Virus record (IMG/VR): IMGVR_UViG_3300033149_003257
Span: 1-64,000 of that record
Length of the DNA stretch: 64,000 bases
Direction: 5' to 3' (one strand)
Source of the DNA: a virus
Shown here one piece after another: positions 2,059 to 61,842 of this stretch. Every line of letters starts with the position of its first letter. Positions within the stretch are counted from its first letter, which is position 1. A model generated the notes under the pieces. It searched no databases and was not told the origin of the DNA. It saw only the letters and a list, made by a program, of their open reading frames with translations. The translations under genes and the position numbers were made by a program.

Positions 2059-2060
2059 TT

Positions 2061-2573: not shown

Positions 2574-2574
2574 G

Positions 2575-3075: not shown

Positions 3076-3090
3076 AGGTTAAAAACTAAA

Positions 3091-3735: not shown

Positions 3736-3749
3736 AGGATATTTAAAAA

Positions 3750-6224: not shown

Positions 6225-6232
6225 TTATTCTT

Positions 6233-8875: not shown

Positions 8876-8893
8876 TTTATTATATCTCCTCTA

Positions 8894-11800: not shown

Positions 11801-12004
11801 TTGTATTGTTTTATTTAAAGACTTTTGAATATTTCTAACTGAACCTGTATCACTTACTTTTCTAACTTCTAATACTTTCTTATCTATATCATTTTTCATT
11901 TTTAATACTGAATTAGCGACACTATTAATATTATTAACTCTATTTGTATTATCTTCATTTATTTCTTTTTCTAATATATCTTTTGTTATATCATCATTAG
12001 CCAT
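8894..12004 (-). CDS. Tape-measure-like tail protein with C-terminal muramidase domain (VgrG3-C-like)
   Basis: Long Gly/Ala/Lys-rich helical protein with IPKMQKGG..LHAAEVVIP motif (second copy near C-terminus). LGVISELYESGG..GDKGGASYGIYQ..WSTAVQFGP lysozyme-like domain. Confidence 0.75.
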   Translation of the reverse strand: MANDDITKDILEKEINEDNTNRVNNINSVANSVLKMKNDIDKKVLEVRKVSDTGSVRNIQKSLNKTIQGLNKVVGALATGVKTVTVETAKASKDVVSKYGKAVSEDISFNKQNIVAMALSRSTPIFGYFAAKFMETGVFKSAADRIKSQIGRAFTSLGTKAKEFLSRKKEEKENKITKIPKMQKGGYVEKGGVAKLHAAEVVIPIEKLLERIDQSKEEMGIIKDSLIKSIRMRHRSELIREGEESKRGFIQSVKRAMENAFQEEEKPIQEQIILELRRLRKGFGFHMNRFKIFVETIMWENPLIRESIYFFKTLGKAVIAPAKVARILFRKRGGYAGLASRSSNALQAISDNVATYGTVSAVHDDRRDKILEEIKRAVQYTATAVTGIPFPDTKITAQDMRWSLFGKGLRSIAAPTEWLLKKFGGKAGEFLTEKRTVGGEAKRIGGAAWKALTTRKKVDNSIIEMKEGVDYIALTERKLLTTARKQEEHTSKMSKKLKGFGNTIWKFLIGIFPIFTKLGSIPTLITKFIGGRALTRVFSESLGSVFGKFGGRLFSTFFGKNSFIVSALGTLSSVVTSKLATLLGPGSFLGSKLGGLTSIISNSVLGKVTGVAGAAAIGYSVGTLINKGIDKAFGEKGGLGKWIYDKTHKEKADDKLIQRIEEIRKRSPEAAERIESIGGLLPKDFKEKRSKNKKVSSGIGTWLSSFTPETAEEKESRSNKKQLGVISELYESGGKGPGAISSGKGDKGGASYGIYQLASKTGTLQKFLESSTFQDRFKGLTPGTAEFNKVWKTIARESSEVFAKEQRNFIKETHFDKLITNLGTIGKNLAERGKAIKEALWSTAVQFGPNTNVVNRALSGVDINKLSDSDIIQKLYDEKSKVGKWFRSSPELWDSLRNRFSSEKQSLLAMAGTSGIPKAKKGGMLIEAHANELFIPLTERVKDSLMSALDKSKIVRGQVNEAMAEGKYIAKENAEAQDKTAKKISGSNKDVHNIINNVTHAFANTTQSVVSNMGNKQGNNSPINRYTALVVEGDLG

Positions 12005-25857: not shown

Positions 25858-26733
25858 TTAAATATGATAATTTCCATTAAATCCATCTGGTATAGATTTC
25901 CAATTAATAGCAATTGCTTCAGAAGTATGAATAGATTCTTCATGAGTACATTTTACAATCCAATCATATATTTCTATTTTTTCATTTAAACAATTAGAAA
26001 TTAATCTAATTGCATCTTCAACAAATATTGGATTTTCTGAAGCAATTCTTGCAACTTCCATTTCATCTTCCCTTTTTATAATTGGATAAGGTCTAGTTCT
26101 AATAACATTTTCAACAGATTCTATTATATCTTCCAACCAAACATAATTTGGTTCTTTTGTCTCAATTAATATATCTGCATAAGATCTTTGTGCGTGTGGA
26201 AAACCACTTTTAGAATTTTCTTTTAAATGATTACATAATTCAGCAGAACATGGACAATATGATGAGTATTGAATTATAACTCCTTGAAAAAATTTAAAAA
26301 TTCTAGAATGACTTTGATCTGATAAAAGAATTTCTTTCATCTGTCCTTCAAATCTACATTTATAATATAAAGGAAATACATTATTTGTTATTGGAGATTT
26401 TTTCTTTATTGGAAATCTAAATTCAAATTTCATAAAAGCAGAATGGGATCCAATATTACTAGTAACATCATCAAGTATTTGCTTAATTAATATATGTTTT
26501 AATGGAAGTTCTAAATAATTTTTTAAAGTAAGCAATAACCTTGACATTGATATTCCTTTTTTTGTAGGACCTAAACTAGTTCTCATAGAAACATTTGCTA
26601 TTAATTGATGATATCCTCCATATTTTGATTCTAATCTAAAAGGAACTTCAACATTTTGAACTCCCACTTGTGCTATTGGAATTTGAATATTTGGTTTACT
26701 TTCTTGAACATCTGGTAAATTACTATTAATCAT
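25858..26733 (-). CDS. folE2: GTP cyclohydrolase I type B (FolE2/MptA family)
   Basis: LPDVQ, KGISMSR, CPCS, PHAQRS, KREDE, NPIFVEDAIR, EESIH. Confidence 0.95.
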   Translation of the reverse strand: MINSNLPDVQESKPNIQIPIAQVGVQNVEVPFRLESKYGGYHQLIANVSMRTSLGPTKKGISMSRLLLTLKNYLELPLKHILIKQILDDVTSNIGSHSAFMKFEFRFPIKKKSPITNNVFPLYYKCRFEGQMKEILLSDQSHSRIFKFFQGVIIQYSSYCPCSAELCNHLKENSKSGFPHAQRSYADILIETKEPNYVWLEDIIESVENVIRTRPYPIIKREDEMEVARIASENPIFVEDAIRLISNCLNEKIEIYDWIVKCTHEESIHTSEAIAINWKSIPDGFNGNYHI

Positions 26734-26751: not shown

Positions 26752-29700
26752 TTAGTTTTTATTACCTCTCTTAACTCCTATAGATATTAAATAAGCATCT
26801 AATAATTTAACAGATTCTGAAACTATAGACTGTTCTTTTTGATCTTTAATATGATCTGATTCAATTATTTCTTTGATATAGTTATTTTTTAAATCAATAC
26901 AATCAGATTTAGTAGTTAAAAATTCAAATAAATTACATGGCGCATCATGTGCAATTAAACAAGCAGTTTCCATTTCACCACACCTTTGTCCGCCTCTATT
27001 TTTTCTCCCCCCTAAAGGTTGTAAAGTTTTTCTAGCATATGAACCAATTCCTCTAACTGCTAATTTCTCTTCTGCTATATGAGAAATTTTTGAGAAATAT
27101 AAATATCCAACTGCAATAGGATTTTGAACAATTGTTTGATTTATTGGATCATATATTTCTGATTCAAATTCAGTATTTGTATATTTCATAATAGATTTTA
27201 ACTGTTCTATATTAATAGATTCAAAAGGAGGTTGTATTATAGTAAGATTATTAATAAAATTTTCATCTATAATATCAGGACATTGTTCTTTAAATTGATT
27301 AGAATACCATTTATCTTTTGTACTATCAATCATTTCAATATATTTAATAATATAATCTTTTGTTTCTTTATTACTAAATTTATTTAAATTTTTTAAAGCT
27401 TCTTGTTTTAAATTATAAAAAGACATAGACAAATGTAGTTCAAATAATTGACCAATATTCATTCTAGATATTATACCAAGTGGGTTGATACATATATCAA
27501 CATGTCTACCATCTTTTAATTTTGGCATCTTTTGATGATCAATAATATTAGAAACTATACCTTTATTACCATGTCGATTTACTATTTTATCTCCTATTTG
27601 TATATCTCTAAAAAATATTCCATTTATTTCAACTCTAATTCCATTTACTTTTTCATTTTTAAATTTATATTTTCCAGAATGAGAAAACTTATTTAATCTT
27701 TTTTCTCTAATTATATTTTCTGCTCTATTTTTTGGGAATAAATCAAAAATGATATCTTTAAATTTATTTTCATCTTTAATTTGTCTTTCTGTTATATTAG
27801 TTATCCAATCTACAAATTCAGGAATATCAGTATTCCACTCATTAGCAAATACATTTACTTCTGTAATAATCATATTCTTTTTTACTTTTAATGGAATCTC
27901 TTCTTCAAATATAGAACAGAAATTTGGAACTGAAACTAATTCTTTCAAAATTGCATATGGTTTACCTATTTTAATTGTTTCAAATTTATTAGGAATTGGT
28001 TTATATATTTCTTTATCTAAACTTAATAACACTTTATTTGGAGGTATATTAAATGATAAATCTTCTATGTGTATTGATGTAAGTGATTCATCTTTCACTA
28101 ATCTATCTGAAATAATAATTCCATCTTCATAATTATATCCATAGTATGACATTACAGCACATAAAAGATTTTTTCCTAAATTTATCTTACCATTTGTTAA
28201 AAAATTACTTTCTGCTAATATATCACCTTTCTTAAATTTATCACCAACTCTTACATAAAGACTCATAAAATCCATATTTTCAACATATATATTTCTAGCT
28301 GATATATCAAAAATATCAGAAGTATTATCATTATAAGTTACAATAAGAAAATTAGTATCGATATATAACACTTCACCATCTTTTTTAGCTATTTTAATAA
28401 ATTGGGTATATTTAGTATACAAACTTTCACAACCAGATTGAATCATTGGTATATCAAAATTTTTTAACATTACTGATTGTCTCATTTGTGAAGAAGCCAT
28501 TTGTAATCTTGTTTGATCATTATGTTCTAAAAATGGAATCATAGAAATTGGTATAGAAATAGGTTCTTTTTCTAGAAATTCTTTTTTAAATCTCAAATTT
28601 TCATCTAATTTAACATTTGGAATTAAACTTTGTAATACCCCACAATTATCTCTATCTGGTGTATCTACTGGACATATTCTTCCAAACATTGTTTCAGATA
28701 TATCACGTAAATGTTTTGGAACATTCTCTCTTTTAAAACCTCCTGGACCCAGTAAACTAGTTCTAGATAATCTAGTCAATTCATCAATAGGATTTATAGA
28801 AAAATCAAATTGAACTATATCGGATACATTACAATCTGATAATATTTGACTAGAATTTATATTAAATTTTGGTTGTCTGGAAGTTCTATTTGACATACAT
28901 AAATCAAAAATTGTTTTTGAAACTCTAGTTAATATTATATATTCAAAACATCTTATTCTTTTGTTAATGAAATTAGTATCATCAAAAGGTCCATTTTCAA
29001 TTGCATTAACTAATTCATCTAGAACGTTATTTGTTTTAAAAAATCTTTTTGACGTTATATCTGTTTTCATTATTAAATCTAAAGCATATACAACATTATC
29101 ACCTTTAGTTCTAGAATCATATTTAGAATACATTCTACCAAGTTCTAAAATATAATCATCCTGTGAAAAACCTTCGGATTCCTCATAATACATTTTTAAA
29201 TCAAACAATAACTTTTCAATTAATGTATTTGGATTATTTGATATTGTAATAGATGAAAAATTATATTTATCATCTAAATAATCTGGGCCAAAATATGAAA
29301 ACATTAATAACGATAAAGGAACTTTCTTTCCTAGAAAACTAGCCATAACGAGAGGTTCTTGTATTTCAGAATCTAGTTTTCTTGTATTTTCAATAACTAA
29401 TATAGTTGCTACATTTGTTCTTAACTTAATATTTTTACCTCTAGTTACAATAGGAATATCAAATAATTGAAACTGTGGTATTTTTTTCTTTCCATTAATA
29501 ATAATATAATTATCATCAACTAATTTTGGAATATACATACTGAGATCTAACTCAAAAGTTCCTTTTTTCAATTTTATTACTAAATTTTGTTTTAACGTTT
29601 TTTGTAATTCTCCAGAAGAAAATTTATGATCTTTTATTGTGCATTCAATAATTTCAAAACCAATTTCTTCTACTGTTTTTACTATTTCTTGAATTTGTTG

Positions 29701-29781
29701 AAGAAGATTAGAATATTCTAATTTTCTAATAGTAAAAACATTATTATTTTGAATCTTAAAATTCGGATTTATAATATCCAA
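26752..29781 (-). CDS. rpoB: Multisubunit RNA polymerase beta subunit, copy 1
   Basis: GPGG, GRICPVDTPD, MRQSV, GYNYEDG, GDKIVNRHGNKG, NPLGIISRMNIGQ, QPLGGR..GGQRCGEME. Confidence 0.95.
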   Translation of the reverse strand: MDIINPNFKIQNNNVFTIRKLEYSNLLQQIQEIVKTVEEIGFEIIECTIKDHKFSSGELQKTLKQNLVIKLKKGTFELDLSMYIPKLVDDNYIIINGKKKIPQFQLFDIPIVTRGKNIKLRTNVATILVIENTRKLDSEIQEPLVMASFLGKKVPLSLLMFSYFGPDYLDDKYNFSSITISNNPNTLIEKLLFDLKMYYEESEGFSQDDYILELGRMYSKYDSRTKGDNVVYALDLIMKTDITSKRFFKTNNVLDELVNAIENGPFDDTNFINKRIRCFEYIILTRVSKTIFDLCMSNRTSRQPKFNINSSQILSDCNVSDIVQFDFSINPIDELTRLSRTSLLGPGGFKRENVPKHLRDISETMFGRICPVDTPDRDNCGVLQSLIPNVKLDENLRFKKEFLEKEPISIPISMIPFLEHNDQTRLQMASSQMRQSVMLKNFDIPMIQSGCESLYTKYTQFIKIAKKDGEVLYIDTNFLIVTYNDNTSDIFDISARNIYVENMDFMSLYVRVGDKFKKGDILAESNFLTNGKINLGKNLLCAVMSYYGYNYEDGIIISDRLVKDESLTSIHIEDLSFNIPPNKVLLSLDKEIYKPIPNKFETIKIGKPYAILKELVSVPNFCSIFEEEIPLKVKKNMIITEVNVFANEWNTDIPEFVDWITNITERQIKDENKFKDIIFDLFPKNRAENIIREKRLNKFSHSGKYKFKNEKVNGIRVEINGIFFRDIQIGDKIVNRHGNKGIVSNIIDHQKMPKLKDGRHVDICINPLGIISRMNIGQLFELHLSMSFYNLKQEALKNLNKFSNKETKDYIIKYIEMIDSTKDKWYSNQFKEQCPDIIDENFINNLTIIQPPFESINIEQLKSIMKYTNTEFESEIYDPINQTIVQNPIAVGYLYFSKISHIAEEKLAVRGIGSYARKTLQPLGGRKNRGGQRCGEMETACLIAHDAPCNLFEFLTTKSDCIDLKNNYIKEIIESDHIKDQKEQSIVSESVKLLDAYLISIGVKRGNKN

Positions 29782-29792
29782 AATATAAACTC

Positions 29793-32498
29793 CTATATTC
29801 TTTCCCCTCTTAATATTTTGTCCATAATACCTTTGTAAAAACCAGAATTAAAAATGCCATTTATAATATGTTTTTTAGGATTTGAAAATGCTAAACCAAG
29901 TAACCAACTTTCAAAAGATGGAACTGATTGTATACTATAATAATCAGGTTCTATTGTTTCTCTATTTTCTAGTAATCTCCATTTTCTAAATTCTTTCCAC
30001 ATTAACTGAGCTACAACACATTCAAAATGAACATGATGTATATTTCCTTCTATATTATAAACTTCAAATAATTCATCAACTATATCTTTATAATTTTTTC
30101 CTTTAAATTTATGTAATAATTTACTAACTATAGATAAATCTCCAATAATATCCATTTGTTTCATTACATTTTTCTTATCACTTTTATTTGTAATTGCGGA
30201 ACCTGAAGTGTGAAATGTACGTAATACTAATTGTGTATTATGTTCTCCTAATGATTGTGCAGCAATAACTCCAATAAATTTACTATCAATAAATTTATAC
30301 AAATCACCATAACATTTATGACATATATTTTCACTTTTACAAAATATGGGACTTCTTAAATAAATAGTTTTTCCAATAATTTCTCGATAATTATTTTCAT
30401 CTATAATTTTTAATATACTATCTTCTAAATGATATCTATACATAAGCATTTTAGCTTTCTTTTCATTATTTACAAAAACTTGTAAATAATCTTTTGTTCC
30501 ACAATCATCAAAAGTTAAAGAAATTTGTAAATTAGCACAACTAAATATTAATTTTCTAGATAAATATCCAGAGGTTCCAGTATTTAATGCAACATCTAAT
30601 AACCCTTTTCTACAACCAAATGTAGACATAAAAAATTCTTTCTCATCTAACCCATCTATTAAACAATTTTTAATGGGAGTAGATAAAATTTCACCATCAA
30701 AATTCGAAACAAATCCTCTTGTTAAAGTTATTTGTCTAATTTGATCCCAATTTCCTCTAGCACCAGATTTTATCATATCGGAATAATGAAAATTATCTTT
30801 TAGAAAATTCAAAGTATCATCACTTAAAACGTTTTGTAATTGCTCTCCAACATCTTTACAATTATAAATATTATTTTGAACTTCTTTATAATTTGGAATT
30901 ACACATTGATTCAGAGATAAAGTAGTACCAAAGAGTGTTGTATATTTAAAACCTTCTTTTTTAATTTTATCTAAAACTTGAGATGTTTCAATAGAATTAT
31001 ACTTTGTTTTTATATCATTTAAAATAAAACTTAAAATTCTCTTATCTACTGGATAATCTATTAGATCATAATCTTCTGGTAAACATTCATTAAATATTTT
31101 TCTAGATTCTGTAATTTCTTTTCCTTTATAAAAAGCTTTATCTTGAAGTGAGTCCAATTTATTGGAAGTTAAAATATGAATTCCAAAAATAATATCTTGA
31201 TTTGGTAATGGTACTAAACTATTATTAGATGGACTATTTAAATTTTTGCTCATTAAAAATTTATCTTTAATTTCCTGTTTAGATTCTTCTGTTATTGGAA
31301 TATAAACAGCCATTTGGTCTCCATCGAAATCAGCATTAAAGCCTCTGCAAGATAATGGATGTATTTTAATTACATTTTCAAGAGATACTTTAATTTTAAA
31401 TCCAATCATACCTAATCTATGTAAAGATGGTTGTCGATTTAAAATACATACTTCATCAGTAACAATTTGTTCACAAATTCTAAATAAAGAGGGAATTTTA
31501 TACTCTATACAATCTTCAACAAATTCAATGGCATCGCTTAATGTTTTAAATTTTCTTAATTCAATTAATTTTTTCGAAACTTGAATTTTAAATAATTCTA
31601 AAATCATTATATAAGGTAATACACATTCATCAATATCTAGAGTAGGTTCTGGAACAATTACTGCTCTACCAGAAAAATCTATTCTTTTACCAAGTATATT
31701 TCCTCTAATTAATCCTTCCTTTTTTGATAACTTATCTAAAATATGTTTATATAATTCATTAACATCATTTTGTAATTGTTTAAAATATTGATAAAATAGT
31801 TGTTTATCTCTATTAATATCTATTATAGTATCTTTCATAATTTCTCTTTTCATTAAGATCTGCATATAAAATCTATTTATTTTATCAACTACTTGATTAT
31901 TTTTACTTACGCTTTTTGCTGCAGGTCTCAAATCAGGAGGAAGAACAATTATTTGTTGTAAAAATAATTTATCAATATTATTTTTTATTATATTCCATTC
32001 ATCATAACCAATAGATGTTAAAGTGTCTGCAAAAGTAAATACTAAATTATATATAGCATCTAGTTTTTCCCATCTTTCACAATTTTCAGGAATATTATCT
32101 GGTTTTGTAACTACTAAGAAATCTTCTCCATCTTTATATAAAATACTATGTTCATTATGAAGTAATAAATCTATTGGATTTTTTATTTGTAAACCACCTA
32201 TATCTACTAAAAGATCATAAAATAATGGATTTATTACAGGTATAGGAAGAATTATTTTAGCAAATCTTCTTCTTCTTTCATAATTACTAACAATATCTAC
32301 TCCACATTCTTTACATTTTCCACCTGAAAAAGATATACCATAATATTTTCCACATTGACAAGTATAATTTTTCAATGGACCAAAAATTTGTTCAGAAAAT
32401 AATCCCTCTGAATGAAATTTTTTCTTATCCATTATTTTAGTTGAAGTAACCTCTTTCAAATCTTTACAAAATTCATTAAAATTTAAAAGTTCTGGCAT
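29793..32498 (-). CDS. rpoC: Multisubunit RNA polymerase beta' subunit, copy 1 (compact, 901 aa)
   Basis: GLFSEQIFGP plus zinc finger, PPDLRP, LGKRIDFSGR, NRQPSLH, NADFDGDQM, SGYLSRKL, TQLVLRTFH. Confidence 0.95.
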   Translation of the reverse strand: MPELLNFNEFCKDLKEVTSTKIMDKKKFHSEGLFSEQIFGPLKNYTCQCGKYYGISFSGGKCKECGVDIVSNYERRRRFAKIILPIPVINPLFYDLLVDIGGLQIKNPIDLLLHNEHSILYKDGEDFLVVTKPDNIPENCERWEKLDAIYNLVFTFADTLTSIGYDEWNIIKNNIDKLFLQQIIVLPPDLRPAAKSVSKNNQVVDKINRFYMQILMKREIMKDTIIDINRDKQLFYQYFKQLQNDVNELYKHILDKLSKKEGLIRGNILGKRIDFSGRAVIVPEPTLDIDECVLPYIMILELFKIQVSKKLIELRKFKTLSDAIEFVEDCIEYKIPSLFRICEQIVTDEVCILNRQPSLHRLGMIGFKIKVSLENVIKIHPLSCRGFNADFDGDQMAVYIPITEESKQEIKDKFLMSKNLNSPSNNSLVPLPNQDIIFGIHILTSNKLDSLQDKAFYKGKEITESRKIFNECLPEDYDLIDYPVDKRILSFILNDIKTKYNSIETSQVLDKIKKEGFKYTTLFGTTLSLNQCVIPNYKEVQNNIYNCKDVGEQLQNVLSDDTLNFLKDNFHYSDMIKSGARGNWDQIRQITLTRGFVSNFDGEILSTPIKNCLIDGLDEKEFFMSTFGCRKGLLDVALNTGTSGYLSRKLIFSCANLQISLTFDDCGTKDYLQVFVNNEKKAKMLMYRYHLEDSILKIIDENNYREIIGKTIYLRSPIFCKSENICHKCYGDLYKFIDSKFIGVIAAQSLGEHNTQLVLRTFHTSGSAITNKSDKKNVMKQMDIIGDLSIVSKLLHKFKGKNYKDIVDELFEVYNIEGNIHHVHFECVVAQLMWKEFRKWRLLENRETIEPDYYSIQSVPSFESWLLGLAFSNPKKHIINGIFNSGFYKGIMDKILRGERI

Positions 32499-32500
32499 AT

Positions 32501-32734
32501 TTAATGCTCTCCAAATTCTTCTATAATAAAATTTGCTATTTGAATAAAATGCTCTTTTACAACTGAAGAAACCACTAAATTAATATCTGGCAACAATTCA
32601 TTAACTATTTGTTTTAATTCTTCTCTACTCAATTTCTCTTCGTAATTTTTTATTATGTTTGTAATTAATTGAATTAAAGTTTCTTCAATTGTAAGTTTAT
32701 TAGTTTCTATTTCATTATTATTTTCTTGTGACAT
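32501..32734 (-). CDS. Hypothetical small acidic helical protein
   Basis: 77-aa ORF directly upstream of beta'. Confidence 0.6.
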   Translation of the reverse strand: MSQENNNEIETNKLTIEETLIQLITNIIKNYEEKLSREELKQIVNELLPDINLVVSSVVKEHFIQIANFIIEEFGEH

Positions 32735-32740: not shown

Positions 32741-33109
32741 CTAATCTCCTTTACTTAATTGAATAAACATTGAATTTACTTTTTTATATTTTATAGATTT
32801 CCACAAAGTATAATAACATTCATCAAAATAAAAAGTTCTCAAATTATTTTCAATTATATTTAAAACTGAATCTGTTGGTTCAACATTTAAATACTTATCA
32901 GAAAGACAATAAATATGATTATCTGGATCACAATTTGGATGATAACCATTTAATATTATCTTTTTAATTTTTTGGTGATTCGTTATAATTAAATAACCAT
33001 TTATAATATGATCTTCTGGTAAATCTAAAATAACGTATAAACTTTTTTGGTAAATTATTCGATTTGGAATAATTCTTTTATTTATAAATAAAAAATCAAT
33101 TTTATCCAC
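32741..33109 (-). CDS. Putative minimal E2-like (UBC-fold) protein
   Basis: YHPNCDPDNHIYCL resembles the E2 HPN...CL catalytic motif; adjacent to an E1-like gene. Confidence 0.45.
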   Translation of the reverse strand: MDKIDFLFINKRIIPNRIIYQKSLYVILDLPEDHIINGYLIITNHQKIKKIILNGYHPNCDPDNHIYCLSDKYLNVEPTDSVLNIIENNLRTFYFDECYYTLWKSIKYKKVNSMFIQLSKGD

Positions 33110-33114
33110 TTTTT

Positions 33115-34086
33115 TTAAGCTGCTCCAGTTTCTTCAATTATTTCAACAAAAGAACCATCATCATCTTTATGAACACTAATAACAAAATTAGAAGTCATAA
33201 ATGGAAAATTGATCATAGAAGAAATAATAGATGTAACATCAGTAGAATCTCTTATATAACATTTAGGTATTGTTTTATTAAATAAGGAATGTTCTTTCTC
33301 ACCAAGACAAATTGTTAATGGATTCTCTTTATTTAATTTTATAATTGGAATAATATGTTCTGATAAATTTACTACTTTATCTGTTTTTTCAGTTGAATTA
33401 TAAATAATATCTATTCTTTTTGATATACTACTATCAATACTTTCTTGTAATAAATTATCTAAAAAATCTAAATGAACTCGATGTATTATTTGATTATTTA
33501 TAAAATAATAGATTTGTTTACTAGCAATTATTTGAGAAGCAAATGATGATGCTTTTTGTATATCAGATTTACTCAGTTTAATTATATATCTTCCTTCATA
33601 TTGATAATTTGTTTTTACATTTTTTCTGCAATCAATAATTAGACTTTTACCTGAAATATATAATCTAATATTTATTTCTTTTGATCTATTACATACAAAA
33701 TCTCTACAATCTATAACTAAATCACAATCAGAAAAACATTTGCATTTTTCTATATATTTATTTTTAAATTTTGTTACAGTTACATCATCTGATATAATTT
33801 CTTCTAAAACATCAACTTTAAACTTACCAATATGTTCATATTTATAAATAGATGTTTTTAGATTTTTATTTTCTACAATATCATTATCTATAATAACAAT
33901 TTCTTTTACATCACTTAAAAATGATAAGTATCTACATAAAAATCCACCTAAAGATCCCAATCCAATTATTGCAATTTTTCTTATTTTATATTTAAAATTA
34001 TCATTAAAGATATTAGTATATATAACATTTAATTTTTCTTCTTTAATCAAAGGTTCCTTATCATTTTGATATCTTTCCTCTTTCAC
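33115..34086 (-). CDS. ThiF/E1-like adenylation protein, copy 2 (divergent)
   Basis: IAIIGLGSLGG, IIDNDIVENKNL, GKFKV, VIDCRD. Confidence 0.8.
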   Translation of the reverse strand: MKEERYQNDKEPLIKEEKLNVIYTNIFNDNFKYKIRKIAIIGLGSLGGFLCRYLSFLSDVKEIVIIDNDIVENKNLKTSIYKYEHIGKFKVDVLEEIISDDVTVTKFKNKYIEKCKCFSDCDLVIDCRDFVCNRSKEINIRLYISGKSLIIDCRKNVKTNYQYEGRYIIKLSKSDIQKASSFASQIIASKQIYYFINNQIIHRVHLDFLDNLLQESIDSSISKRIDIIYNSTEKTDKVVNLSEHIIPIIKLNKENPLTICLGEKEHSLFNKTIPKCYIRDSTDVTSIISSMINFPFMTSNFVISVHKDDDGSFVEIIEETGAA

Positions 34087-34096
34087 AGAGAAACTC

Positions 34097-34342
34097 CTAT
34101 TGATTACTTTCCATTATATTAAGCATTTCATCAATATTGTTCTTTAGAAAAATAAGTTCTTTTTTACTTAATCTTCCCATTTTTCCATATCCAATAGTTT
34201 CATCTTTTTTTACGTAACTTCTAGTTATTTGTAACTTAATTTCTCCTTCATCATATTTCATTAAAGACATTAATAATGATTTATTGTTTTCACCATTCAT
34301 TTCAAATAATTTTATTAAGACATCTTTTTCTGGATCCCACAT
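34097..34342 (-). CDS. PC4/YdbC-like ssDNA-binding protein
   Basis: SLMKYDEGEIKLQITR...GKMGRLSKKEL pattern. Confidence 0.45.
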   Translation of the reverse strand: MWDPEKDVLIKLFEMNGENNKSLLMSLMKYDEGEIKLQITRSYVKKDETIGYGKMGRLSKKELIFLKNNIDEMLNIMESNQ

Positions 34343-34361
34343 TTTTCCCCCTTATTAAAAT

Positions 34362-34398
34362 AAATAATCTGGAGAAAAAAATATTCTCCAGATTATTT
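34362..34398 (-). terminator. Intergenic hairpin, probable terminator
   Basis: aaataatctggaga / tctccagattattt. Confidence 0.6.
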
Positions 34399-34410
34399 TT
34401 CAAAAAATTA

Positions 34411-35037
34411 TTAATCTTTTTTTAGTTTACGATCTTTAATTTTAGAAATAATATTCGACTCTGTAAAGCTAGGAATAGGTTTATAAGAAGATTTGTAATC
34501 AAAATCTTTAGATGTAACTACTAATGGATAAATATGAGGTATTCTTAATATAGCACGATGAATCGATTTTCTATCTTTTCTGGTTGCTGTAACTAATTTA
34601 ATTTTATTATATAATTGTATATCAAGTGATTTAAAATGTTCATTTAATTTCTCTATTTCATCTACATCTTTTATTTTTTTTATCTTTAATATTTCTCTAT
34701 TATTCTTATTCCATGTAGAATCAAATGAACCTTTTTTAGAATTATTTTTAATCCATCGATTAACATATGGATTAATTTTATCATCATTTGTTTTTCTATA
34801 TAATGCTTTTACCGCTTTTTTGTAAGAATATGACTTTCCCTTTTGTTTATTATATGTATCTAATAATGAACATATACTAATTCCTCTAGCTAATATATTA
34901 AAATTTTCATCAATTAAAATACAAACTGTATAGACAATAGAAATTTCAGTTGTATTTTTATAAAATCTAATATATTTTACTCCTTTATCTTGAAGATTTT
35001 TCTTAAGAAATCTCCTTTTTTTATTTCCTTTCTTCAT
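34411..35037 (-). CDS. Hypothetical basic phage protein
   Basis: ARGISICSLLDTYNKQKGK motif; AGGAG RBS. Confidence 0.6.
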   Translation of the reverse strand: MKKGNKKRRFLKKNLQDKGVKYIRFYKNTTEISIVYTVCILIDENFNILARGISICSLLDTYNKQKGKSYSYKKAVKALYRKTNDDKINPYVNRWIKNNSKKGSFDSTWNKNNREILKIKKIKDVDEIEKLNEHFKSLDIQLYNKIKLVTATRKDRKSIHRAILRIPHIYPLVVTSKDFDYKSSYKPIPSFTESNIISKIKDRKLKKD

Positions 35038-35099
35038 TTCCTCCTATCTCCACAGATAACTTAGATAGTCTATTTAAAATAAAATTATTTATTATTTTT

Positions 35100-35133
35100 A
35101 GGGGATAATATATACAAAATATATATTATCCCC
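35100..35133. terminator. Hairpin downstream of the ubiquitin-like gene
   Basis: aggggataatatata / tatatattatcccct. Confidence 0.6.
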
Positions 35134-35154
35134 TTTTCATTATTTAATTAATAA

Positions 35155-35622
35155 CTATTTATAACCTTTTCCACCAGCTGGTTTTAGAAATTCTAAATTA
35201 TCACCAAATTGTAAAACATAACCAGATGGAACCTGTTTTCCATTAACTATTCCATCTGCCATTTTGTCAATATTTAAAACTTCCCGAAGAAATTCAGAAA
35301 CCGCACCAACTGTTTTTCCAACAACATCAAAACGACCAGATGCAGCACCACTAGAAACTAAAATTGTTGTTGTGCACCTATCACCAAATCGAGCAGATGG
35401 TTTTGTAAAGCTGCTAGTAAATACAGCACTTATGTCTGTCACTTTATTAGAATCAACATTACTAATAGAAGGAGATGCTCCATATTTTTCTAAAATTGCA
35501 TCAATAACTACATCTTTTCTTTTCTTAGACATACCCGGTATATCTAATTCATAAACACACATAGTTCTAAGATCAGCGACAGTCCTAGCTTCCAACTCTT
35601 CTCTTGTAAATTCTTTTTTCAT
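35155..35622 (-). CDS. Ubiquitin-like (beta-grasp) protein with N-terminal Rho_N/HEH-like domain
   Basis: LEARTVADLRTM..ELDIPGMSKKRKDVVIDAIL (Rho_N-like). GKTVGAV...IVNG......VLQFGDNLEFLKPAGGKG(YK) (ThiS/MoaD/Ub-like). Downstream of E1. Confidence 0.8.
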   Translation of the reverse strand: MKKEFTREELEARTVADLRTMCVYELDIPGMSKKRKDVVIDAILEKYGASPSISNVDSNKVTDISAVFTSSFTKPSARFGDRCTTTILVSSGAASGRFDVVGKTVGAVSEFLREVLNIDKMADGIVNGKQVPSGYVLQFGDNLEFLKPAGGKGYK

Positions 35623-35634
35623 TTTTTTTTTCTC

Positions 35635-36342
35635 CTAAATAAAAGATTTTAAAAGTTTTTGCTTTGGTTTTCTAATTTTTGAGCTTGCTGACATAGTTTT
35701 TATATCAAAATATATTTCTGAGTAAGTATAATCTTTTAAAACTACAATATTATAAAAAGCCCAACACATAATTGTAGCAACTCCTAAATTAGTAAAATAT
35801 AATTGTGGATCAGACTGAGCTAATTCTTCACAAGACAAATCATCAGGATGATTATCTTGAGCATTAATTATTTCAGGATGATAATCCGTAACTTTTGGAG
35901 TTATATCAACATCATTATATCTAACATATATTTGGACATTTCCATCTGTATATTCATTACCACCAGAAATTAAAATTATATTTGATAATGTACTACAATA
36001 ATCTGAAACTATTCTTCTTGTTTTATGATTATCTACACATACAAAAACTATATCATTATTATAAATATAAGAAGAAATATTATCATCATTTAAAAATTGA
36101 GAAACAAAATTGATGTCTAAATTATTAAATTTTTTTCTCAATTCTTCCATTTTAACTTTTGATTTGTTACCTAACATCATAAAATCTTGTCTTTCAAAAT
36201 TTTTAGGTTCGTATGAATCACCATCAATTAATTTAATATGTGATTCAAAGTTATTTAAATAATTTAAAAATCTACATATTTTTTCTGATAATATAGAACC
36301 AATTCCACCCAAACCAATTATTTTAATATTAATACATTCCAT
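35635..36342 (-). CDS. ThiF/E1-like ubiquitin-activating enzyme, copy 1 (PRTRC-type)
   Basis: IIGLGGIGS, DGDSYEPKNFERQ, NKS, CVDNHKTR, SGGN, candidate catalytic Cys in LSCEE, PQLYFTN. Confidence 0.9.
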   Translation of the reverse strand: MECINIKIIGLGGIGSILSEKICRFLNYLNNFESHIKLIDGDSYEPKNFERQDFMMLGNKSKVKMEELRKKFNNLDINFVSQFLNDDNISSYIYNNDIVFVCVDNHKTRRIVSDYCSTLSNIILISGGNEYTDGNVQIYVRYNDVDITPKVTDYHPEIINAQDNHPDDLSCEELAQSDPQLYFTNLGVATIMCWAFYNIVVLKDYTYSEIYFDIKTMSASSKIRKPKQKLLKSFI

Positions 36343-36362
36343 AACTTAATCCTTTTAAGTAT

Positions 36363-37382
36363 TTAAAATTTCAATTTATTGGAATATTCTCTATTTGTTT
36401 TAATAATATCTTCTTGGGAATTATCACTAAAATTATAATTATCTTCATCAACATAAAAAAAATCTTCAACATCTACATCTAAATAATCTTCATTATCTTC
36501 ATCCCATTCTTCTATTTGTAATTTCATTTTATAATTTCTAAATACACATTCATTACATGGATTATATTCTTCATCTTCAATATTATTATTAAATAAGCTA
36601 TAATTAATATTTCCACTTGATAAGAAAGAAGAAGAAAATGGAAAAGATTGTTGATTATTATAAAAACTATAAGGGGACATTGAAAAATTGGAAACATAAA
36701 CTCTTTCAGATACATTTTTAAGCCAATCATTAACATTATAATTACATTTATTTTCATTTATTAAATATCTTAATTTTTTAAAATTATCTACTTCTTTAGA
36801 ATCTTCAGATAAAACAAGACCATCAATATATAAAGTTGGATCTACAATAAATCTAGAACCATTCGAAACTATACATGCAGATATACTAACATTTTCAGTA
36901 GGAATATTACCAATTGTTATATGTAAACCATCAAAATATTTTTCATCGTTGATATCTATACCGGAATGAAAAGCACTCATAAAACCATGAGAATGTATAG
37001 TTGCAATCATAATATAATTTTTTGGGCTTGCATTTCTTGTATATTTAATACCGCCTGGAGAAACTTCTTGCAATGGAGAATCGAAAAAATAACTATTATC
37101 TAACAAATTATAATATATAACTATAATTGACTCTCCTTTATACAAATCATATACTTTTTTGAAAAAAGTTATAATTTTATAAAATTCTTCGTTTGAAATT
37201 TTTGGAATATCTAATTTTGCAGAAGATGAAATACTATTTAATATAGAAATATTATCAACTGGTGTTATACTTTCTAATATCCCAACTTTCTTTTTTAAAA
37301 AAATACCTTCTTTAGCAACTATATAAAATATATCATCATCTGGAATCTCTTCTATTCCATTATTAATAAAAATTTTAAACAC
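36363..37382 (-). CDS. JAB/JAMM (MPN+) isopeptidase
   Basis: E...HSHGFMSAFHSGID fits HxH-x7-S-x2-D; GLHITIG; acidic C-terminal tail. Confidence 0.9.
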   Translation of the reverse strand: MFKIFINNGIEEIPDDDIFYIVAKEGIFLKKKVGILESITPVDNISILNSISSSAKLDIPKISNEEFYKIITFFKKVYDLYKGESIIVIYYNLLDNSYFFDSPLQEVSPGGIKYTRNASPKNYIMIATIHSHGFMSAFHSGIDINDEKYFDGLHITIGNIPTENVSISACIVSNGSRFIVDPTLYIDGLVLSEDSKEVDNFKKLRYLINENKCNYNVNDWLKNVSERVYVSNFSMSPYSFYNNQQSFPFSSSFLSSGNINYSLFNNNIEDEEYNPCNECVFRNYKMKLQIEEWDEDNEDYLDVDVEDFFYVDEDNYNFSDNSQEDIIKTNREYSNKLKF

Positions 37383-37387
37383 TATTT

Positions 37388-40042
37388 TTATTCTCCTATA
37401 ATATTAATAATTTCTTTGGGGTCTACCATAATCCCATACTCTCTACGAACATTCGTATCTTTTATTTCTGTATAAGAATTATGAAAAGTTGGAATTACTT
37501 TTTTAAATTGATTTTGATTTACAATTTGTTTTAAACTTTTTCTCGGATTTAATATTCCATATCTAGATATTATACCATTTTTTCTAAAATGTCGTGCATA
37601 AGAATGAGAATACTCATCTTTTATAATATTGACTAAATATTTTTTGTGTAATGGTTCATAACTAGAATTTTCTAACATAGTTATGTTATTATTCATAGTC
37701 TCAAAAATGTCACCACCTTGAAAACCAAAAGTAGAGAATAAAATAGAATCATGATTTATTTTTGACCATGATGGCATATCTTTTGTATATAGTTCAAAAT
37801 TTTCTAACAAATCATCAAACCAAATAGTACAACAGTTTGAACATAAAACTAAAGGTTGATTACAACCAGTATCTGTTAAAAAAGCAACAATAATATTTGC
37901 TTTACTTTTTGGAAAACATTTTATTCCTTTTACCTTTGCTTTTATCTTAGTTCCAACTTTTACACCATTATATTCCGAAGAAACATGTCTAATTGTTCCA
38001 GCATTTATTATTCCAGTTCTAAAACTAATAAAATTTTTCTCATAATTAATATTATCATTACTATTCATTGAAATTACCAAATGATGAAAATCATTTACTG
38101 AAAAATTTGTAATTTGTCTAATTTTTAACATATCTACTGGATTTCTCCAATCTACAAAAATAACTTTATCTCCTAGTGAAAATTGTATATCTAAATCAAA
38201 ACTTCTGATTTTAACATGATCATCAGCTAATATATCTTGTATATTAAAATTTCTATTATAATCTAATTTATCAAGTTGATCAATATAATATCCATCTTTT
38301 CTAACATTTATAATTAAATTCTTACTACTATGCTGTAAATATAATCCATTTCTTACAGTTGAAACCATATTAGCATCATTATTTTCAGTTTCATTAACAA
38401 TATTATGATAATTAAAAAAACTATTTATGTCATAAATTTCTACTTCTTTATTACTGTTTTCAAATATACATCCTAAAACATTATCTTCTGTTTCTGTATC
38501 AAAAGCAACAAATTTTAATAATTTATAAAAATGAATAATTGGACTAAATATTCTTCTACTTTTTTTCATACGTTCATTAAAATAATATTTCTTTCCTATT
38601 TCCAATTTAGTACCATTATTTAATACTATATTATTTAAATCTATATGCTCAGCGACAATAGAATCAGATAAATAATTATAATTATCTGTTATTATTTCTG
38701 CTTTACCATCGTAATTAATTCTAATTTTATTTACCTTATTATAAATACCTTCTATTGGAAAAGTAATTTTAATAATATCTCCGCTTTTTATTGTTACACC
38801 ATTTTTTAAAATAATTTCAGATAAAGAATTTGTATCAAAAATTTGATTCATATATTGCATAAATTTATTAGTTAATTTATACTTTACTACTTTACTATTT
38901 TCTCTATCTTCAAAATTAATATATCTAACTTCTTCAAAATTATTCTCAAAACTATTCTTAAAAATTAGAGAATATATATATTTAACTCTTCCATTATTAA
39001 ATTTAACGGAATCTCCAACAGACAATATACGATCATTTAAATAAAGATTTTTTGAAAAACTTTCTACAAGTGTATAATATTCTTCACCTTCTTCACTTAT
39101 TTCTAATTCATCTACAACATCAATACCTTCACTAAAAAAAGAAACTATATCAAAATAACCTATAATATTTTGTCTGTTTTTCTTGATCTTTTTTTGTATA
39201 AGTGTTTCTACTAATCCCTTCAAATGGACGTTAGCCTTTAACCAATTTACATTAAATATAAACATTGGATCTTTCATAGAATAATAAGACCATGTTAAAA
39301 AATCAGATAACTCTAAAGGTCCTTCTCGTTCGTAATCAATATAATGATATGAATAATCTTTATTAAATATATTTTTCCAGAATGCATTAATATAAGCTTC
39401 AATAGTTTCGTTACAGTTTCCATATGTATATTTATTAGTAATTTCGCCTAAACAAACAGAATAATTTGTATTAATATTTGTTAAATTCGGTTTTAAAAGG
39501 TCATCTTCTAAAGAACCAAATGGAGATAATTTAAAAAATACTTTCATTTCTTTTACTATAGGACCATCAAAAATAAATATATATATAATATAAGGAAATG
39601 ATAAAGATATTTTGTATGGAGATTTATTTTCTTGAAGGAAATTTTGTAAATTAAATATATCTATTTTTCCTTCAATTTTTAATTTTTCAATTATAGCTTC
39701 AAAATTAAAATCTATAAAAATAGTTCTTATTCTTGGTTGTTCTTCAATAACAAATATTTTTTTATGTGTTAAATCTTTAAAAAATCTACAGTTTTTAGGA
39801 AGCAACATATCTAAATCAGCATGTGAATCTTGTATTAATATTTTCTGCATATGCTTAAAAAAATCACTTGTGAGTAATGAAAATTTATTTGAAAAAGGTA
39901 CTACATTAGCTTCAGCTTCATTGATATCTTTTTCTACTAAATTTAATTCAGATATTTTTTCATTACTAAATGCTTTTATATTATATAAACCTGTTTTATT
40001 TCTATCAATAATTATACAATCATTTGTTGACATTGTTGACAT
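37388..40042 (-). CDS. Prokaryotic E2 (family D-like) domain fused to tandem KOW/SH3-like repeats
   Basis: LSFPYIIYIF...LLKPNLTNINTNYSVCLG...AFWKNIFN, then repeated hxxGDxh motifs (LSVGDSVK, IKSGDIIK, LEIGKKYY, FSLGDKVI, VKVGTKIK). Confidence 0.7.
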   Translation of the reverse strand: MSTMSTNDCIIIDRNKTGLYNIKAFSNEKISELNLVEKDINEAEANVVPFSNKFSLLTSDFFKHMQKILIQDSHADLDMLLPKNCRFFKDLTHKKIFVIEEQPRIRTIFIDFNFEAIIEKLKIEGKIDIFNLQNFLQENKSPYKISLSFPYIIYIFIFDGPIVKEMKVFFKLSPFGSLEDDLLKPNLTNINTNYSVCLGEITNKYTYGNCNETIEAYINAFWKNIFNKDYSYHYIDYEREGPLELSDFLTWSYYSMKDPMFIFNVNWLKANVHLKGLVETLIQKKIKKNRQNIIGYFDIVSFFSEGIDVVDELEISEEGEEYYTLVESFSKNLYLNDRILSVGDSVKFNNGRVKYIYSLIFKNSFENNFEEVRYINFEDRENSKVVKYKLTNKFMQYMNQIFDTNSLSEIILKNGVTIKSGDIIKITFPIEGIYNKVNKIRINYDGKAEIITDNYNYLSDSIVAEHIDLNNIVLNNGTKLEIGKKYYFNERMKKSRRIFSPIIHFYKLLKFVAFDTETEDNVLGCIFENSNKEVEIYDINSFFNYHNIVNETENNDANMVSTVRNGLYLQHSSKNLIINVRKDGYYIDQLDKLDYNRNFNIQDILADDHVKIRSFDLDIQFSLGDKVIFVDWRNPVDMLKIRQITNFSVNDFHHLVISMNSNDNINYEKNFISFRTGIINAGTIRHVSSEYNGVKVGTKIKAKVKGIKCFPKSKANIIVAFLTDTGCNQPLVLCSNCCTIWFDDLLENFELYTKDMPSWSKINHDSILFSTFGFQGGDIFETMNNNITMLENSSYEPLHKKYLVNIIKDEYSHSYARHFRKNGIISRYGILNPRKSLKQIVNQNQFKKVIPTFHNSYTEIKDTNVRREYGIMVDPKEIINIIGE

Positions 40043-40775: not shown

Positions 40776-41081
40776 TCACCTCCGTCTAATACTAAACTTT
40801 TTAGTTGGTGTTTCTAACCATTCTACTTTTTGGAATGGGACAGATCTCCAATCATTTTTTTCTAAATCAAAAACATGAATAATTTTATTATCTTTTAATA
40901 ACTTTAAAATTTTTTCTATATTTACAGATTTTGGTTTTTTGGAATCAGGTATTTTATCAAAATTTAAAGTACATTTCATAATTCTTATACTTCCATCTTG
41001 TTTTTTAAACCTTATATTTACCGAATCCTCTCCTCGAACTTTTCTCCAAAATTCTATTACACTATCTATAAAGTCTTCCAT
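40776..41081 (-). CDS. WYL_2/Sm-like SH3-barrel protein
   Basis: FKKQDGSIRIMKCTL...VFDLEKNDWRS. Confidence 0.75.
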   Translation of the reverse strand: MEDFIDSVIEFWRKVRGEDSVNIRFKKQDGSIRIMKCTLNFDKIPDSKKPKSVNIEKILKLLKDNKIIHVFDLEKNDWRSVPFQKVEWLETPTKKFSIRRR

Positions 41082-41095: not shown

Positions 41096-42121
41096 TTATA
41101 TCCTTTTTTCTCGGTGCATAACAATTTCTGATAAACTAGGGTTTTTTTCAACAATATTTGACATTAACATACATGTCCAATTACATTTTCTACAAAGTTC
41201 TTTTTTATTCTTTTTAATAAAAGAATTTAAAAATGGACTTATTTCTTTATCTTTCAAAAATATTTTATCTGCTGGAAATACTCCAATACTTCCTTTTATT
41301 CGCAAACATAATCTAACCGTTCCATCAGCATCTATTGATAAATTATGTAAATTATTTTCAATTTTACAATCCATCTCAGATGGAAGTATATTTATAATTT
41401 TATTTAAAAAGTTAGATCCCATATGTACATCTAAATTCTCTTTTTGTATTAAATCTATTTGCTCTTCTAAAATTTTTGTTCTACTTACTAAGAGACTTTT
41501 ATCAGAAACATTAGAAAAATCATAATATGGAGTTTTTGCTATATCAATAAAAGTTATAGAACTACTTATATTATAGTCAGATAAATATTTTACTAGAGAA
41601 TATAAATACTCAACATTATTATTATCAACTGTAATTTCAGCAACTAGATCTTTTATAATTCCTTTATATTTAGAAAGATTTATTAATCCCTGTGTACTTT
41701 TTTTCATTCTGTCAGAAAATTCTTCATCAGAGAAAATTAGTGGATCAATTGAAGAAGTCAATCCAGAAATATATGGTACACTAATCATTAAATCTTCTAA
41801 TTTATCTTGAACTTCTTCTGAATTATTTGTAATAATTGTATAATGTATACCTTTCTTATTACAATATACAACTATTTCTGCAAGATCTTCTCTTAATAAT
41901 GGTTCACCACCATAAAATATATGAAACATATCTGAATTATGGTTATAAAATTTTTCTAAACAATTTATAACAAACGAAGTAGACATTTCATTTTCATAAT
42001 AATATTTCATATTTGGATATGCTTTTGGTTTATCTTTATAATTTCTAACAATTCCACAATAAGAACATCTAAGATTACACTTTCTTGTTAATAACCAATT
42101 AACAATTCTAATTTCTGACAT
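41096..42121 (-). CDS. Radical SAM enzyme with C-terminal Cys cluster (twitch/SPASM-like)
   Basis: CNLRCSYC, YGGEPLL, ITN, C..IDADGTVRLC..CRKCNWTC. Confidence 0.9.
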   Translation of the reverse strand: MSEIRIVNWLLTRKCNLRCSYCGIVRNYKDKPKAYPNMKYYYENEMSTSFVINCLEKFYNHNSDMFHIFYGGEPLLREDLAEIVVYCNKKGIHYTIITNNSEEVQDKLEDLMISVPYISGLTSSIDPLIFSDEEFSDRMKKSTQGLINLSKYKGIIKDLVAEITVDNNNVEYLYSLVKYLSDYNISSSITFIDIAKTPYYDFSNVSDKSLLVSRTKILEEQIDLIQKENLDVHMGSNFLNKIINILPSEMDCKIENNLHNLSIDADGTVRLCLRIKGSIGVFPADKIFLKDKEISPFLNSFIKKNKKELCRKCNWTCMLMSNIVEKNPSLSEIVMHREKRI

Positions 42122-61831: not shown

Positions 61832-61842
61832 AAATTAATCTC

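Follow-up and report, generated by a model that had tools for sequence, protein, structure and literature searches.

Does a jumbo phage run a protein-tagging pathway of its own? The question is raised by a block of genes at positions 32741-40042 of the DNA analyzed here, the first 64 kb (64,000 nucleotides, hereafter the window) of the 151,964-bp IMG/VR virus record IMGVR_UViG_3300033149_003257, whose completeness was put at 49% by CheckV. An earlier note, made from the sequence alone, had recognized four contiguous, co-oriented genes with the motifs of a ubiquitin-conjugating enzyme (E2), a JAB/JAMM peptidase, a ThiF-type activating enzyme (E1), and a beta-grasp ubiquitin-like protein (Ubl), and had interpreted them as a conjugation system. 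The four open reading frames (ORFs) and the quoted motifs were confirmed, all on the minus strand, and the interpretation itself gained support in silico from predicted folds and invariant catalytic residues. With moderate confidence, we regard the cassette as a phage-encoded ubiquitin-like protein conjugation system that is distantly related to the E1-E2-JAB-Ubl cassettes known as PRTRC or class 6d. Positions given below are those of the window, and every gene and hairpin of the block lies on its minus strand.

Gene order and conservation of the cassette

In the direction of transcription, the block encodes proteins of 884, 339, 235, 155, 208, 81, 323, 122, and 77 amino acids (aa), followed by the beta' and beta subunits of RNA polymerase (RNAP). 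Intergenic gaps in the cassette measured 2-20 nt, apart from those on both flanks of the 208-aa gene. A search with the 884-aa protein returned eight relatives with 24-33% identity over the full length and 31-43% over the searched N-terminal region, and their contigs share the order SbcC, cassette, RNAP beta'/beta. The 155-aa protein gave 273 matches, the best 120 of which were 51-62% identical to it; used as a probe, it retrieved 73 IMG/VR loci. No tblastn match to this protein was found among 50,697 deposited phage records.

Over about 79 loci, BLAST detected the large E2-like protein in 73, the JAB peptidase in 75, the first E1 (E1a) in 76, the Ubl in 78, the second ThiF-family protein (E1b) in 78, the 122-aa protein in 73, and RpoC in 78. 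Because homologues occurred in 73-78 of these loci with motif residues invariant, the cassette genes are real and not chance ORFs. All seven anchor genes were colinear on one strand in each of the 68 complete loci, with overlapping or tiny gaps, so the synteny that the earlier note had wanted surveyed in related phage contigs was found without exception among them. RNAP beta' served as an independent anchor. It identified at least 147 relatives in IMG/VR, of which 80 were kept and 55 had enough upstream sequence; the first five genes were present in 54 of these 55. Colinearity in the complete loci and presence in the RNAP-anchored loci identify the block as a core module of the clade, not an accessory island, and this status suggests that it serves the infection program of the phage itself. 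The clade in question is a large group of uncultured jumbo phages with two multisubunit RNAPs, and the block is part of its conserved core. The related loci are contigs of uncultured phages, and the label "jumbo phage" is justified by the fact that they reach 277 kb. Phage origin, co-orientation, and a position upstream of the RNAP genes, as described in the earlier note, were borne out by the gene map and the relatives.

An E2-like domain in the 884-aa protein

The first gene (37388..40042) encodes the 884-aa protein, here called large E2 on the basis of its ORF, an AlphaFold2 model, a fold search, and invariant residues. It carries the motif N189-x6-V-C197-L-G with the canonical E2 spacing N-x7-C, and both N189 and C197 were invariant in alignments of 56 and 58 sequences. 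The candidate catalytic residue, Cys197, is situated 8 residues past Asn189 and 13 residues before a long helix (residues 210-223). The upstream Asn is thus present while the His of the HPN motif is absent, as in class 6d.

The AlphaFold2 model of residues 1-300, calculated with 56 sequences, had predicted local distance difference test (pLDDT) values above 94 for residues 80-280. In a wide VIA-align search with the model, which is independent of Foldseek, chains of E2 and its variant UEV filled about half of the top 50 rows and were almost the sole fold matched over residues 79-263. The highest ranking were 1zdn_A (E2S; Z 5.2 over 126 residues, root mean square deviation (rmsd) 5.7) and 3bzh_A (E2E1; Z 4.8). 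More than 20 further E2/UEV chains, including UbcH5/7, Ubc13, and the Tsg101 UEV, fell within the Z range of 3.3-5.2, and the bacterial CdnG-E2, Cap2, and BubCD structures were matched at Z 3.3-3.5. In sequence searches, the Pfam family Prok-E2_D matched residues 181-237 with E 0.009 and 16 bits (cut-off 25 bits). The same model was matched at E<=0.1 by 49 of 56 family members, with a best E of 1.7e-7. The protein had no PRTRC_B match in NCBIfam, and a PDB sequence-profile search with the E2-like domain came back empty. In BFVD, four significant structural relatives were found, all of them uncharacterized proteins of uncultured phages. Taken at the level of the model, a UBC/E2-like fold is supported for residues 80-270 (39233..39805), in agreement with the UBC-like N-terminal domain postulated in the earlier note.

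The regions flanking this domain have features of their own. Residues 1-79 (39806-40042) resembled a PC4/Pur-alpha/Whirly-like single-stranded DNA-binding fold (Z about 4.8 over residues 4-79; pLDDT 60-75). Along with the HeH domain of the Ubl described below, they may provide the cassette with another module that binds nucleic acids. Residues 271-884 contain conserved positions (e.g. C734-S735-N736 and W741), and domain and PDB profile searches recognized no family or fold there.

The JAB peptidase and E1a

The second gene (36363..37382) encodes a 339-aa JAB/JAMM metallopeptidase, identified by its Prok-JAB and PRTRC_A matches and by the JAMM motif H130-S-H132-x7-S140-x2-D143. Glu84, His130, His132, Ser140, and Asp143 were invariant in 65 homologues. 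The protein possesses an extra N-terminal domain and a C-terminal CxxC pair (C276, C279). Pfam Prok-JAB matched with E 2e-4, below the cut-off. PRTRC_A matched residues 20-174 with 34.9 bits and E 1.1e-8 (cut-off 101.8 bits), covering profile positions 29-185 of 192. The peptidase is predicted to remove a cap from the Ubl and to act as a deconjugase.

The third gene (35635..36342) encodes E1a, a minimal ThiF-type E1 of 235 aa recognized by its ThiF match and its invariant residues. In 63 homologues, GLGGIG (GxGGxG, residues 10-15), D40, NFERQ (N48-x2-R51-Q52), D104, and S-C171 were invariant. Judged by its sequence, E1a thus has the GxGxxG motif, the NxxRQ motif, the Mg-binding Asp, and the Cys after the adenylation core by which E1/ThiF/MoeB adenylyltransferases are recognized. 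Pfam ThiF matched with 5e-19 and 68.8 bits, above the cut-off of 28.1. The best NCBIfam family was PRTRC_ThiF (49.7 bits, E 2.9e-13; cut-off 144.75 bits). Searches of PHROGs and PADLOC added only generic E1 similarity.

A predicted capped modifier and the sulfur-carrier alternative

The fourth gene (35155..35622) encodes the 155-aa pro-Ubl, assigned from Rho_N and ThiS matches and an AlphaFold2 model. In this model, an HeH domain (residues 7-47) is joined through a linker to a beta-beta-alpha-beta-beta unit. The Rho_N/HeH domain (residues 5-51; 35470-35610) was detected by Pfam with E 5.5e-4. In VIA-align, residues 5-51 matched the Rho N-terminal domain with Z 6.1 and an rmsd of 2.1 over 46 residues. 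The beta-grasp part (approximately residues 66-153; 35164-35427) is preceded by a Ser-rich linker and ends in the invariant pair K152-G153. Its residues 91-152 matched MoaD (Z 5.9 and 5.4), ThiS, Fubi, ubiquitin variants, ISG15, TtuB, and SAMP1, all at Z 4.6-5.9, so the beta-grasp fold that the earlier note had proposed for this product was recovered in the model. Top Foldseek rows were ubiquitin, ThiS, and TGS with weak E-values, and Pfam/NCBIfam searches yielded Rho_N and ThiS/TGS, both below threshold (ThiS E 0.015). No PRTRC_C match was obtained at E<=1. Matches to FHA and alanine racemase in the PDB sequence-profile search were dismissed as spurious. One homologue of 221 aa (P0010) carries a second HeH copy inserted in the linker, with beta-grasp and KG end unchanged, so that the HeH module can be duplicated.

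For the C terminus, the earlier note had given an ending GGKG-YK. This sequence is present, but the double glycine is no signature: the family ends in an invariant PAG-x-K-G, and the GG of the window (...PAGGKG-YK) is a local variant. C-terminal alignment set off Y154-K155 (35158-35163) as a two-residue cap. Among 175 distinct homologues, about 90 stop at the Gly, about 70 continue with one Cys, and the remainder have 1-7 unrelated residues after it. An invariant terminal Gly followed by a variable cap, next to JAB and E1 genes, is what classically marks a processed Ubl modifier. The Ubl was also among the best conserved proteins of the block (median identity 52% vs 28% for the large E2). The 155-aa protein is accordingly predicted, as far as the model goes, to combine a Rho_N/HeH domain with a beta-grasp domain that has a cappable C-terminal Gly.

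A beta-grasp protein beside a ThiF protein may also belong to a sulfur-carrier pathway. A ThiS/MoaD/CysO-like carrier would then be adenylated by ThiF and converted to a thiocarboxylate that feeds a phage-specific thio-modification of a nucleotide, cofactor, or DNA base, with the JAB acting as in CysO/Mec+ or QbsE/QbsD, by cap removal or by release of a Cys adduct. The fold matches of the Ubl to MoaD, ThiS, and TtuB fit this picture, as does the fact that ThiF/MoeB models were likewise matched by E1a. The frequent KG-Cys ending of the homologues recalls a carrier-cysteine adduct or a QbsE-type cap, and the surroundings of the cassette include a conserved radical SAM gene as well as the GTP cyclohydrolase gene folE2 after the RNAP genes. 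The Ubl itself, however, carries an HeH domain at its N terminus and has KG rather than GG as its ending, and E1a, the JAB, and the large E2 find their closest family relations among PRTRC proteins. In 73 of about 79 loci, the Ubl is conserved together with a UBC-like domain whose Cys is invariant. Furthermore, no rhodanese, cysteine desulfurase, PP-loop sulfurtransferase, MoaE/ThiG-type acceptor, or TtuA was found among the block and neighboring genes scanned. We therefore consider a sulfur-carrier role unlikely.

E1b and the 122-aa HPN-Cys protein

Downstream of the Ubl, the earlier note had listed a second E1 and an E2-like gene with an HPN..CL motif. The former (33115..34086) does encode a ThiF-family protein, the 323-aa E1b (Pfam ThiF E 2.5e-14, 53.4 bits, above the cut-off), but its status as an active E1 is doubtful. 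E1b retains GxGxxG (residues 42-47), D67, K90, and a D126-C-R-D129 motif. At the NxxRQ site, the R-Q is replaced by a consensus N-S (T-S in the window), and C171 of E1a has no counterpart. Comparison with the E1a family by hhalign gave 94.5% probability over 97 columns, comprising the Rossmann core only; this core was most similar to Cap2-type E1 domains (3e-10) and matched BilD weakly. Since the Arg that contacts the ATP phosphates and the catalytic Cys are missing, E1b is more likely a non-catalytic partner, adaptor, or substrate than a second active E1, as far as can be judged from these residues.

The extreme C terminus of E1b reads ..[IL][PE]ETG[AG]A with nothing after it (33115-33130) and was invariant in about 60 divergent homologues. 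The C-terminal ~95 residues gave no PDB profile, Pfam, or Ubl-profile match, and a protein search with this C-domain returned the query alone. Because hhalign revealed no similarity between the C-domain and the Ubl beta-grasp, a Ubl-like end of E1b is suggested solely by a beta-beta-alpha-beta-beta pattern seen by eye in the preceding 70 residues.

The second of these genes (32741..33109) encodes a 122-aa protein that carries YHPNCDPDNHIYCL. In an alignment of 58 homologues, H57-P58-N59-x8-C68 (HPNxxPxTGEFC[LI]) was invariant, so the motif noted earlier stands; the E2 identity draws on this motif and on marginal matches, which make the protein a candidate minimal E2. Its top two PDB profile matches were eukaryotic E2s aligned at HPN...C with weak E-values of 0.08 and 0.16. 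UQ_con was the Pfam family matched by most members, yet these numbered only 3 of 58 (best E 0.006). A family profile search of 1.84 billion proteins yielded 339 clusters, and canonical E2s were not reached among the best 150 of the 339; so small a total speaks against the profile extending to canonical E2s, which form a very large family. When the family was compared with the domain of the large E2 by hhalign, HPN and Cys were aligned to N189 and C197, but the probability was 0.45%.

The losses in E1b bear on a further possibility, namely that the Ubl and the JAB cooperate in chaperoning and processing and tag nothing covalently, as has been suggested for the Ubl and JAB of lambda TAPI/TAPK in tail assembly. 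The ThiF and E2-like domains would then have degenerated or would serve a different adenylation chemistry. Phage Ubl+JAB pairs lacking E1 and E2 are known from comparative genomics (PMC1779556), and the C-terminal 600 residues of the large protein lack a known fold. The degeneration seen in E1b does not extend to the first four genes, whose adenylation, thioester-transfer, and JAMM residues were invariant across 56-65 divergent homologues. Moreover, the block sits among replication and transcription genes, not structural genes. A pair of this non-conjugating kind is very unlikely in our estimation.

E1b and the 122-aa protein also invite comparison with eukaryotic and archaeal Ubl pathways (ubiquitin/SUMO/NEDD8; SAMP/UbaA/JAMM1). 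Like these, the cassette has a beta-grasp modifier with a C-terminal Gly, variable caps, and a JAMM protease. The HPN...Cys signature of the 122-aa protein was aligned at the active site of two eukaryotic E2s, a resemblance for which homology is not statistically established. An intact E1a together with a degenerate E1b recalls heterodimeric E1s, by analogy. Unlike the eukaryotic and archaeal pathways, the cassette contains no RING/HECT ubiquitin ligase (E3) and no link to a proteasome, and E1a is a minimal 235-aa ThiF protein without a separate Cys domain or ubiquitin-fold domain (UFD). A eukaryote-like variant of the conjugation scheme can be formulated in which E1a and E1b form a heterodimer, the E1b C-domain with its ETGAA tail recruits a genuine HPN-Cys E2, and the HeH-Ubl tags phage proteins, possibly the adjacent RNAP, tethering them covalently to nucleic acid for transcription control or co-packaging with the genome. 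This elaborate version appears improbable to us.

Transcript structure

Directly 3' of the Ubl stop codon, in AT-rich sequence, lies a 15-bp hairpin with G+C-ended stem (35100..35134). Of 63 distinct related loci, 61 have a strong hairpin there, with a median minimum free energy of -26 kcal/mol and a median z of -4.5; the position is conserved, the sequence is not. The hairpin is likely a transcript end, an attenuator, or a stabilizer, and its placement suggests that it could raise Ubl expression relative to the downstream genes. A second, terminator-like hairpin with a T-rich tail (34362..34398) is located 3' of the 208-aa gene.

The genes between the Ubl and E1b are variable inserts with unassigned function. 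The 208-aa protein (34411..35037) is absent from 34 of 78 related loci and the 81-aa protein (34097..34342) is likewise variable. In 34 of 78 loci, no gene separates E1b from the Ubl, and in the others one or two small genes are inserted. One locus departs from the pattern. In L159 (IMGVR_UViG_3300005573_000857, 1-10000), the large E2, JAB, E1a, and Ubl genes are missing between the WYL_2 gene and E1b, and a 208-aa-like gene, E1b (ending in ETASA, without Gly), and the HPN-Cys protein are retained upstream of RNAP beta'. The four-gene unit, the Ubl, and a second ThiF were absent from the entire 92-kb record, which is 29% complete. The hairpins and this locus together argue that the block consists of two units, one comprising the large E2, JAB, E1a, and Ubl and the other comprising E1b and the HPN-Cys protein. 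We propose that the latter two form a separable second pair that shares its transcription with the RNAP genes.

Comparison with PRTRC cassettes

PRTRC denotes a ParB-related, ThiF-related cassette, is represented in NCBIfam by the hypothetical equivalogs TIGR03735-03738, and equals class 6d (Iyer, Burroughs, Aravind 2006, PMC1779556). Class 6d operons code for an E1, a Ubl, a JAB extended by an additional N-terminal domain, and an E2 in which the HPN histidine is missing (PMC1779556). The phage cassette has the same four-part set, its E1 being of the ThiF type, and its best family matches lead to PRTRC_ThiF from E1a, to PRTRC_A from the JAB, and to Prok-E2_D from the large E2. In both cases, the carrier is a mobile genetic element. 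The cassette differs in that its scores are far below the curated cut-offs, that the Ubl is without a PRTRC_C match and has an HeH domain, that the E2 domain forms part of an 884-aa protein, and that a second ThiF and an HPN-Cys protein are attached. In addition, it resides in the core genome of a lytic-type jumbo phage, whereas PRTRC is found on plasmids or integrative and conjugative elements (ICEs). Pfam/NCBIfam detected no ParB-type gene among the cassette neighbors scanned. Because the cut-offs were missed and neither PRTRC_C nor ParB was seen, we did not file the cassette as a PRTRC member and regard it as no more than a distant relative with a probably similar mode of action.

PRTRC-like cassettes were also found in public records of the Bacillus jumbo phages vB_BauM_KLEB27-3 (gp194-197), WH1, and Edson and of the large Firmicute plasmids C. 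difficile pHSJD-312 and B. thuringiensis pBTHD789-2. They share with the present cassette a ThiF protein (PRTRC_ThiF 8e-31 / 4e-24), a PRTRC_A-like JAB, and a PRTRC_B/Prok-E2_D protein in the same order, and the small protein of pHSJD-312 ends in ...NKG. In contrast, their ThiF is only 25-32% identical to E1a, and the second ThiF/HPN-Cys pair and the RNAP linkage were not seen there. Nothing was found when the Ubl family was compared with the small protein of the C. difficile plasmid by hhalign. No paper on a phage-encoded E1-E2-JAB-Ubl system, the Bacillus phage cassettes included, turned up in the literature searched, the coverage of which was incomplete.

Comparison with antiphage systems and the counter-defense alternative

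Bacterial E1-E2-JAB-Ubl systems act in antiphage immunity, as described in PMC10557695 and PMC11601596. In Bil, in Cap2/Cap3 of the type II cyclic oligonucleotide-based antiphage signaling system (CBASS), and in Bub, E1 adenylation is followed by E2 transfer, and a JAB or other peptidase matures the modifier and reverses conjugation; capped or fused Ubl precursors also occur. The present cassette, unlike these systems, is virus-encoded, has E1 and E2 in separate genes, and is without a CD-NTase, Bil-type components, or a serine protease. PADLOC models (PADLOC-DB version from 2023) for type II CBASS Cap2/Cap3 and BilA-D matched only the Rossmann E1 part of the cassette, and the JAB, Ubl, and E2-like proteins had no match to them.

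Counter-defense had been suggested in the earlier note, and the likeness to host systems raises the idea that the cassette serves mainly to neutralize a host Ubl-based immunity of the Bil, type II CBASS, or Bub kind. The JAB would strip host Ubl conjugates off phage proteins, and the phage E1, E2, and Ubl would serve as decoys or modify host defense proteins. E1a and E1b are indeed similar in their E1 domains to CBASS Cap2, and E1b also to BilD, but resemblance to the models for Bil, Cap2/Cap3, or other systems in PADLOC did not go beyond this generic domain. Anti-defense genes usually show a sporadic distribution, whereas nearly all relatives carry this block as a colinear core module beside their RNAP genes. 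That the Ubl is so strongly conserved suggests partners that are numerous or constrained, a further point against counter-defense, which we judge quite unlikely.

Proposed mechanism of conjugation

Gene content, predicted folds, conserved catalytic residues, and synteny were observed, and from them we infer the chemical steps and the conjugates of the conjugation system as follows. The JAB would cut the short C-terminal cap (YK in the window) off the pro-Ubl, exposing Gly153. E1a would adenylate Gly153 with ATP and would probably hold the Ubl as a thioester on Cys171. The Ubl would be transferred to Cys197 in the UBC-like domain of the 884-aa protein, and targets may be selected by the ~600-residue C-terminal part of the same protein. 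An isopeptide bond to a target lysine would complete the reaction, which the JAB could reverse. Because the N-terminal part of the Ubl is a Rho_N/HeH (SAP-like) domain, each target would acquire a nucleic-acid-binding module through conjugation.

Several points weigh against conjugation. The case is built entirely on sequence families, predicted folds, conserved residues, and synteny. All matches of the window proteins to PRTRC, Prok-E2_D, Prok-JAB, and ThiS were below the curated cut-offs. Fold-search Z values were modest and did not exceed 5.2 (E2 domain) or 6.1 (Ubl), and neither model had a Foldseek match in the PDB at E<=0.001, with E-values above 0.1 in both cases. Sulfur carriers (MoaD, ThiS, and TtuB) are among the best structural neighbors of the Ubl, and a radical SAM gene is a conserved neighbor of the cassette. 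The absence of the four-gene unit from the 92-kb record of L159 indicates that the cassette may be dispensable or relocatable. Finally, the function of PRTRC itself was not found in the literature searched.

Genome neighborhood

The window has a G+C content of about 24%, and its minus strand carries nearly all genes. Among its genes outside the cassette are those for a helicase, SbcCD, a T4-type large terminase, and the subunits of topoisomerase II. Directly downstream of the cassette and co-oriented with it are the RNAP genes at 26752..32498 (beta', 29793-32498; beta, 26752-29781), separated from it by the gene for the conserved small protein of 77 aa (32501..32734). Two separate beta/beta' gene sets, multisubunit and unsplit, were detected in the window, at 26752-32498 and 57740-63999. 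The first encodes a beta' of 901 aa and a beta of 1009 aa; the second encodes a beta of 1363 aa and a beta' truncated by the window end. The two sets recall the phiKZ-like pairs of virion and non-virion RNAPs, although the subunits are unsplit here.

Immediately after RNAP beta lies the gene for FolE2, a type I GTP cyclohydrolase (25858-26733; Pfam E 7.5e-63). In a relative (L005), a PTPS/QueD gene is nearby, which together with FolE2 hints at a 7-deazaguanine or pterin pathway in the phage clade. Just upstream of the cassette are a WYL_2 (Sm-like SH3) gene (40776-41081) and the radical SAM gene (41096-42121), conserved in 65 of about 79 loci. A QueE-like identity of the radical SAM protein was considered and rejected. 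Its best matches were generic viperin- or SPASM peptide-maturase-type models far below the cut-off, and we therefore drew no functional link from this neighbor. Elsewhere in the window, a 1036-aa protein (8894-12004) matched the VgrG3-like C-terminal domain of type VI secretion spikes very strongly (E 3.7e-68) and is probably a phage tail spike or cell-puncturing protein.

Significance for phage biology

Bacterial Ubl conjugation has recently been tied to antiphage immunity (type II CBASS, Bil, and Bub), with the machinery owned by the host. Here it is a viral core module: the full E1-E2-JAB-Ubl set is conserved in a widespread uncultured jumbo-phage clade with at least 147 related IMG/VR contigs. 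Relative to known cassettes, the new elements are that it is virus-encoded, that it belongs to a core genome, and that its modifier is fused to an HeH domain, its E2 is giant, and an E1-like/E2-like pair is attached. Conservation is higher for the modifier than for its enzymes, and the HeH domain joined to it is predicted to bind nucleic acids. The question can be taken to the bench through the related cassettes of cultured Bacillus jumbo phages, and with a ...K-G terminus, target lysines would keep a single glycine after trypsin digestion, a practical signature for mass spectrometry. Should conjugates form, this would be a virus-run protein-tagging system in prokaryotes, and it would provide the first functional handle on the long-uncharacterized PRTRC/6d family.

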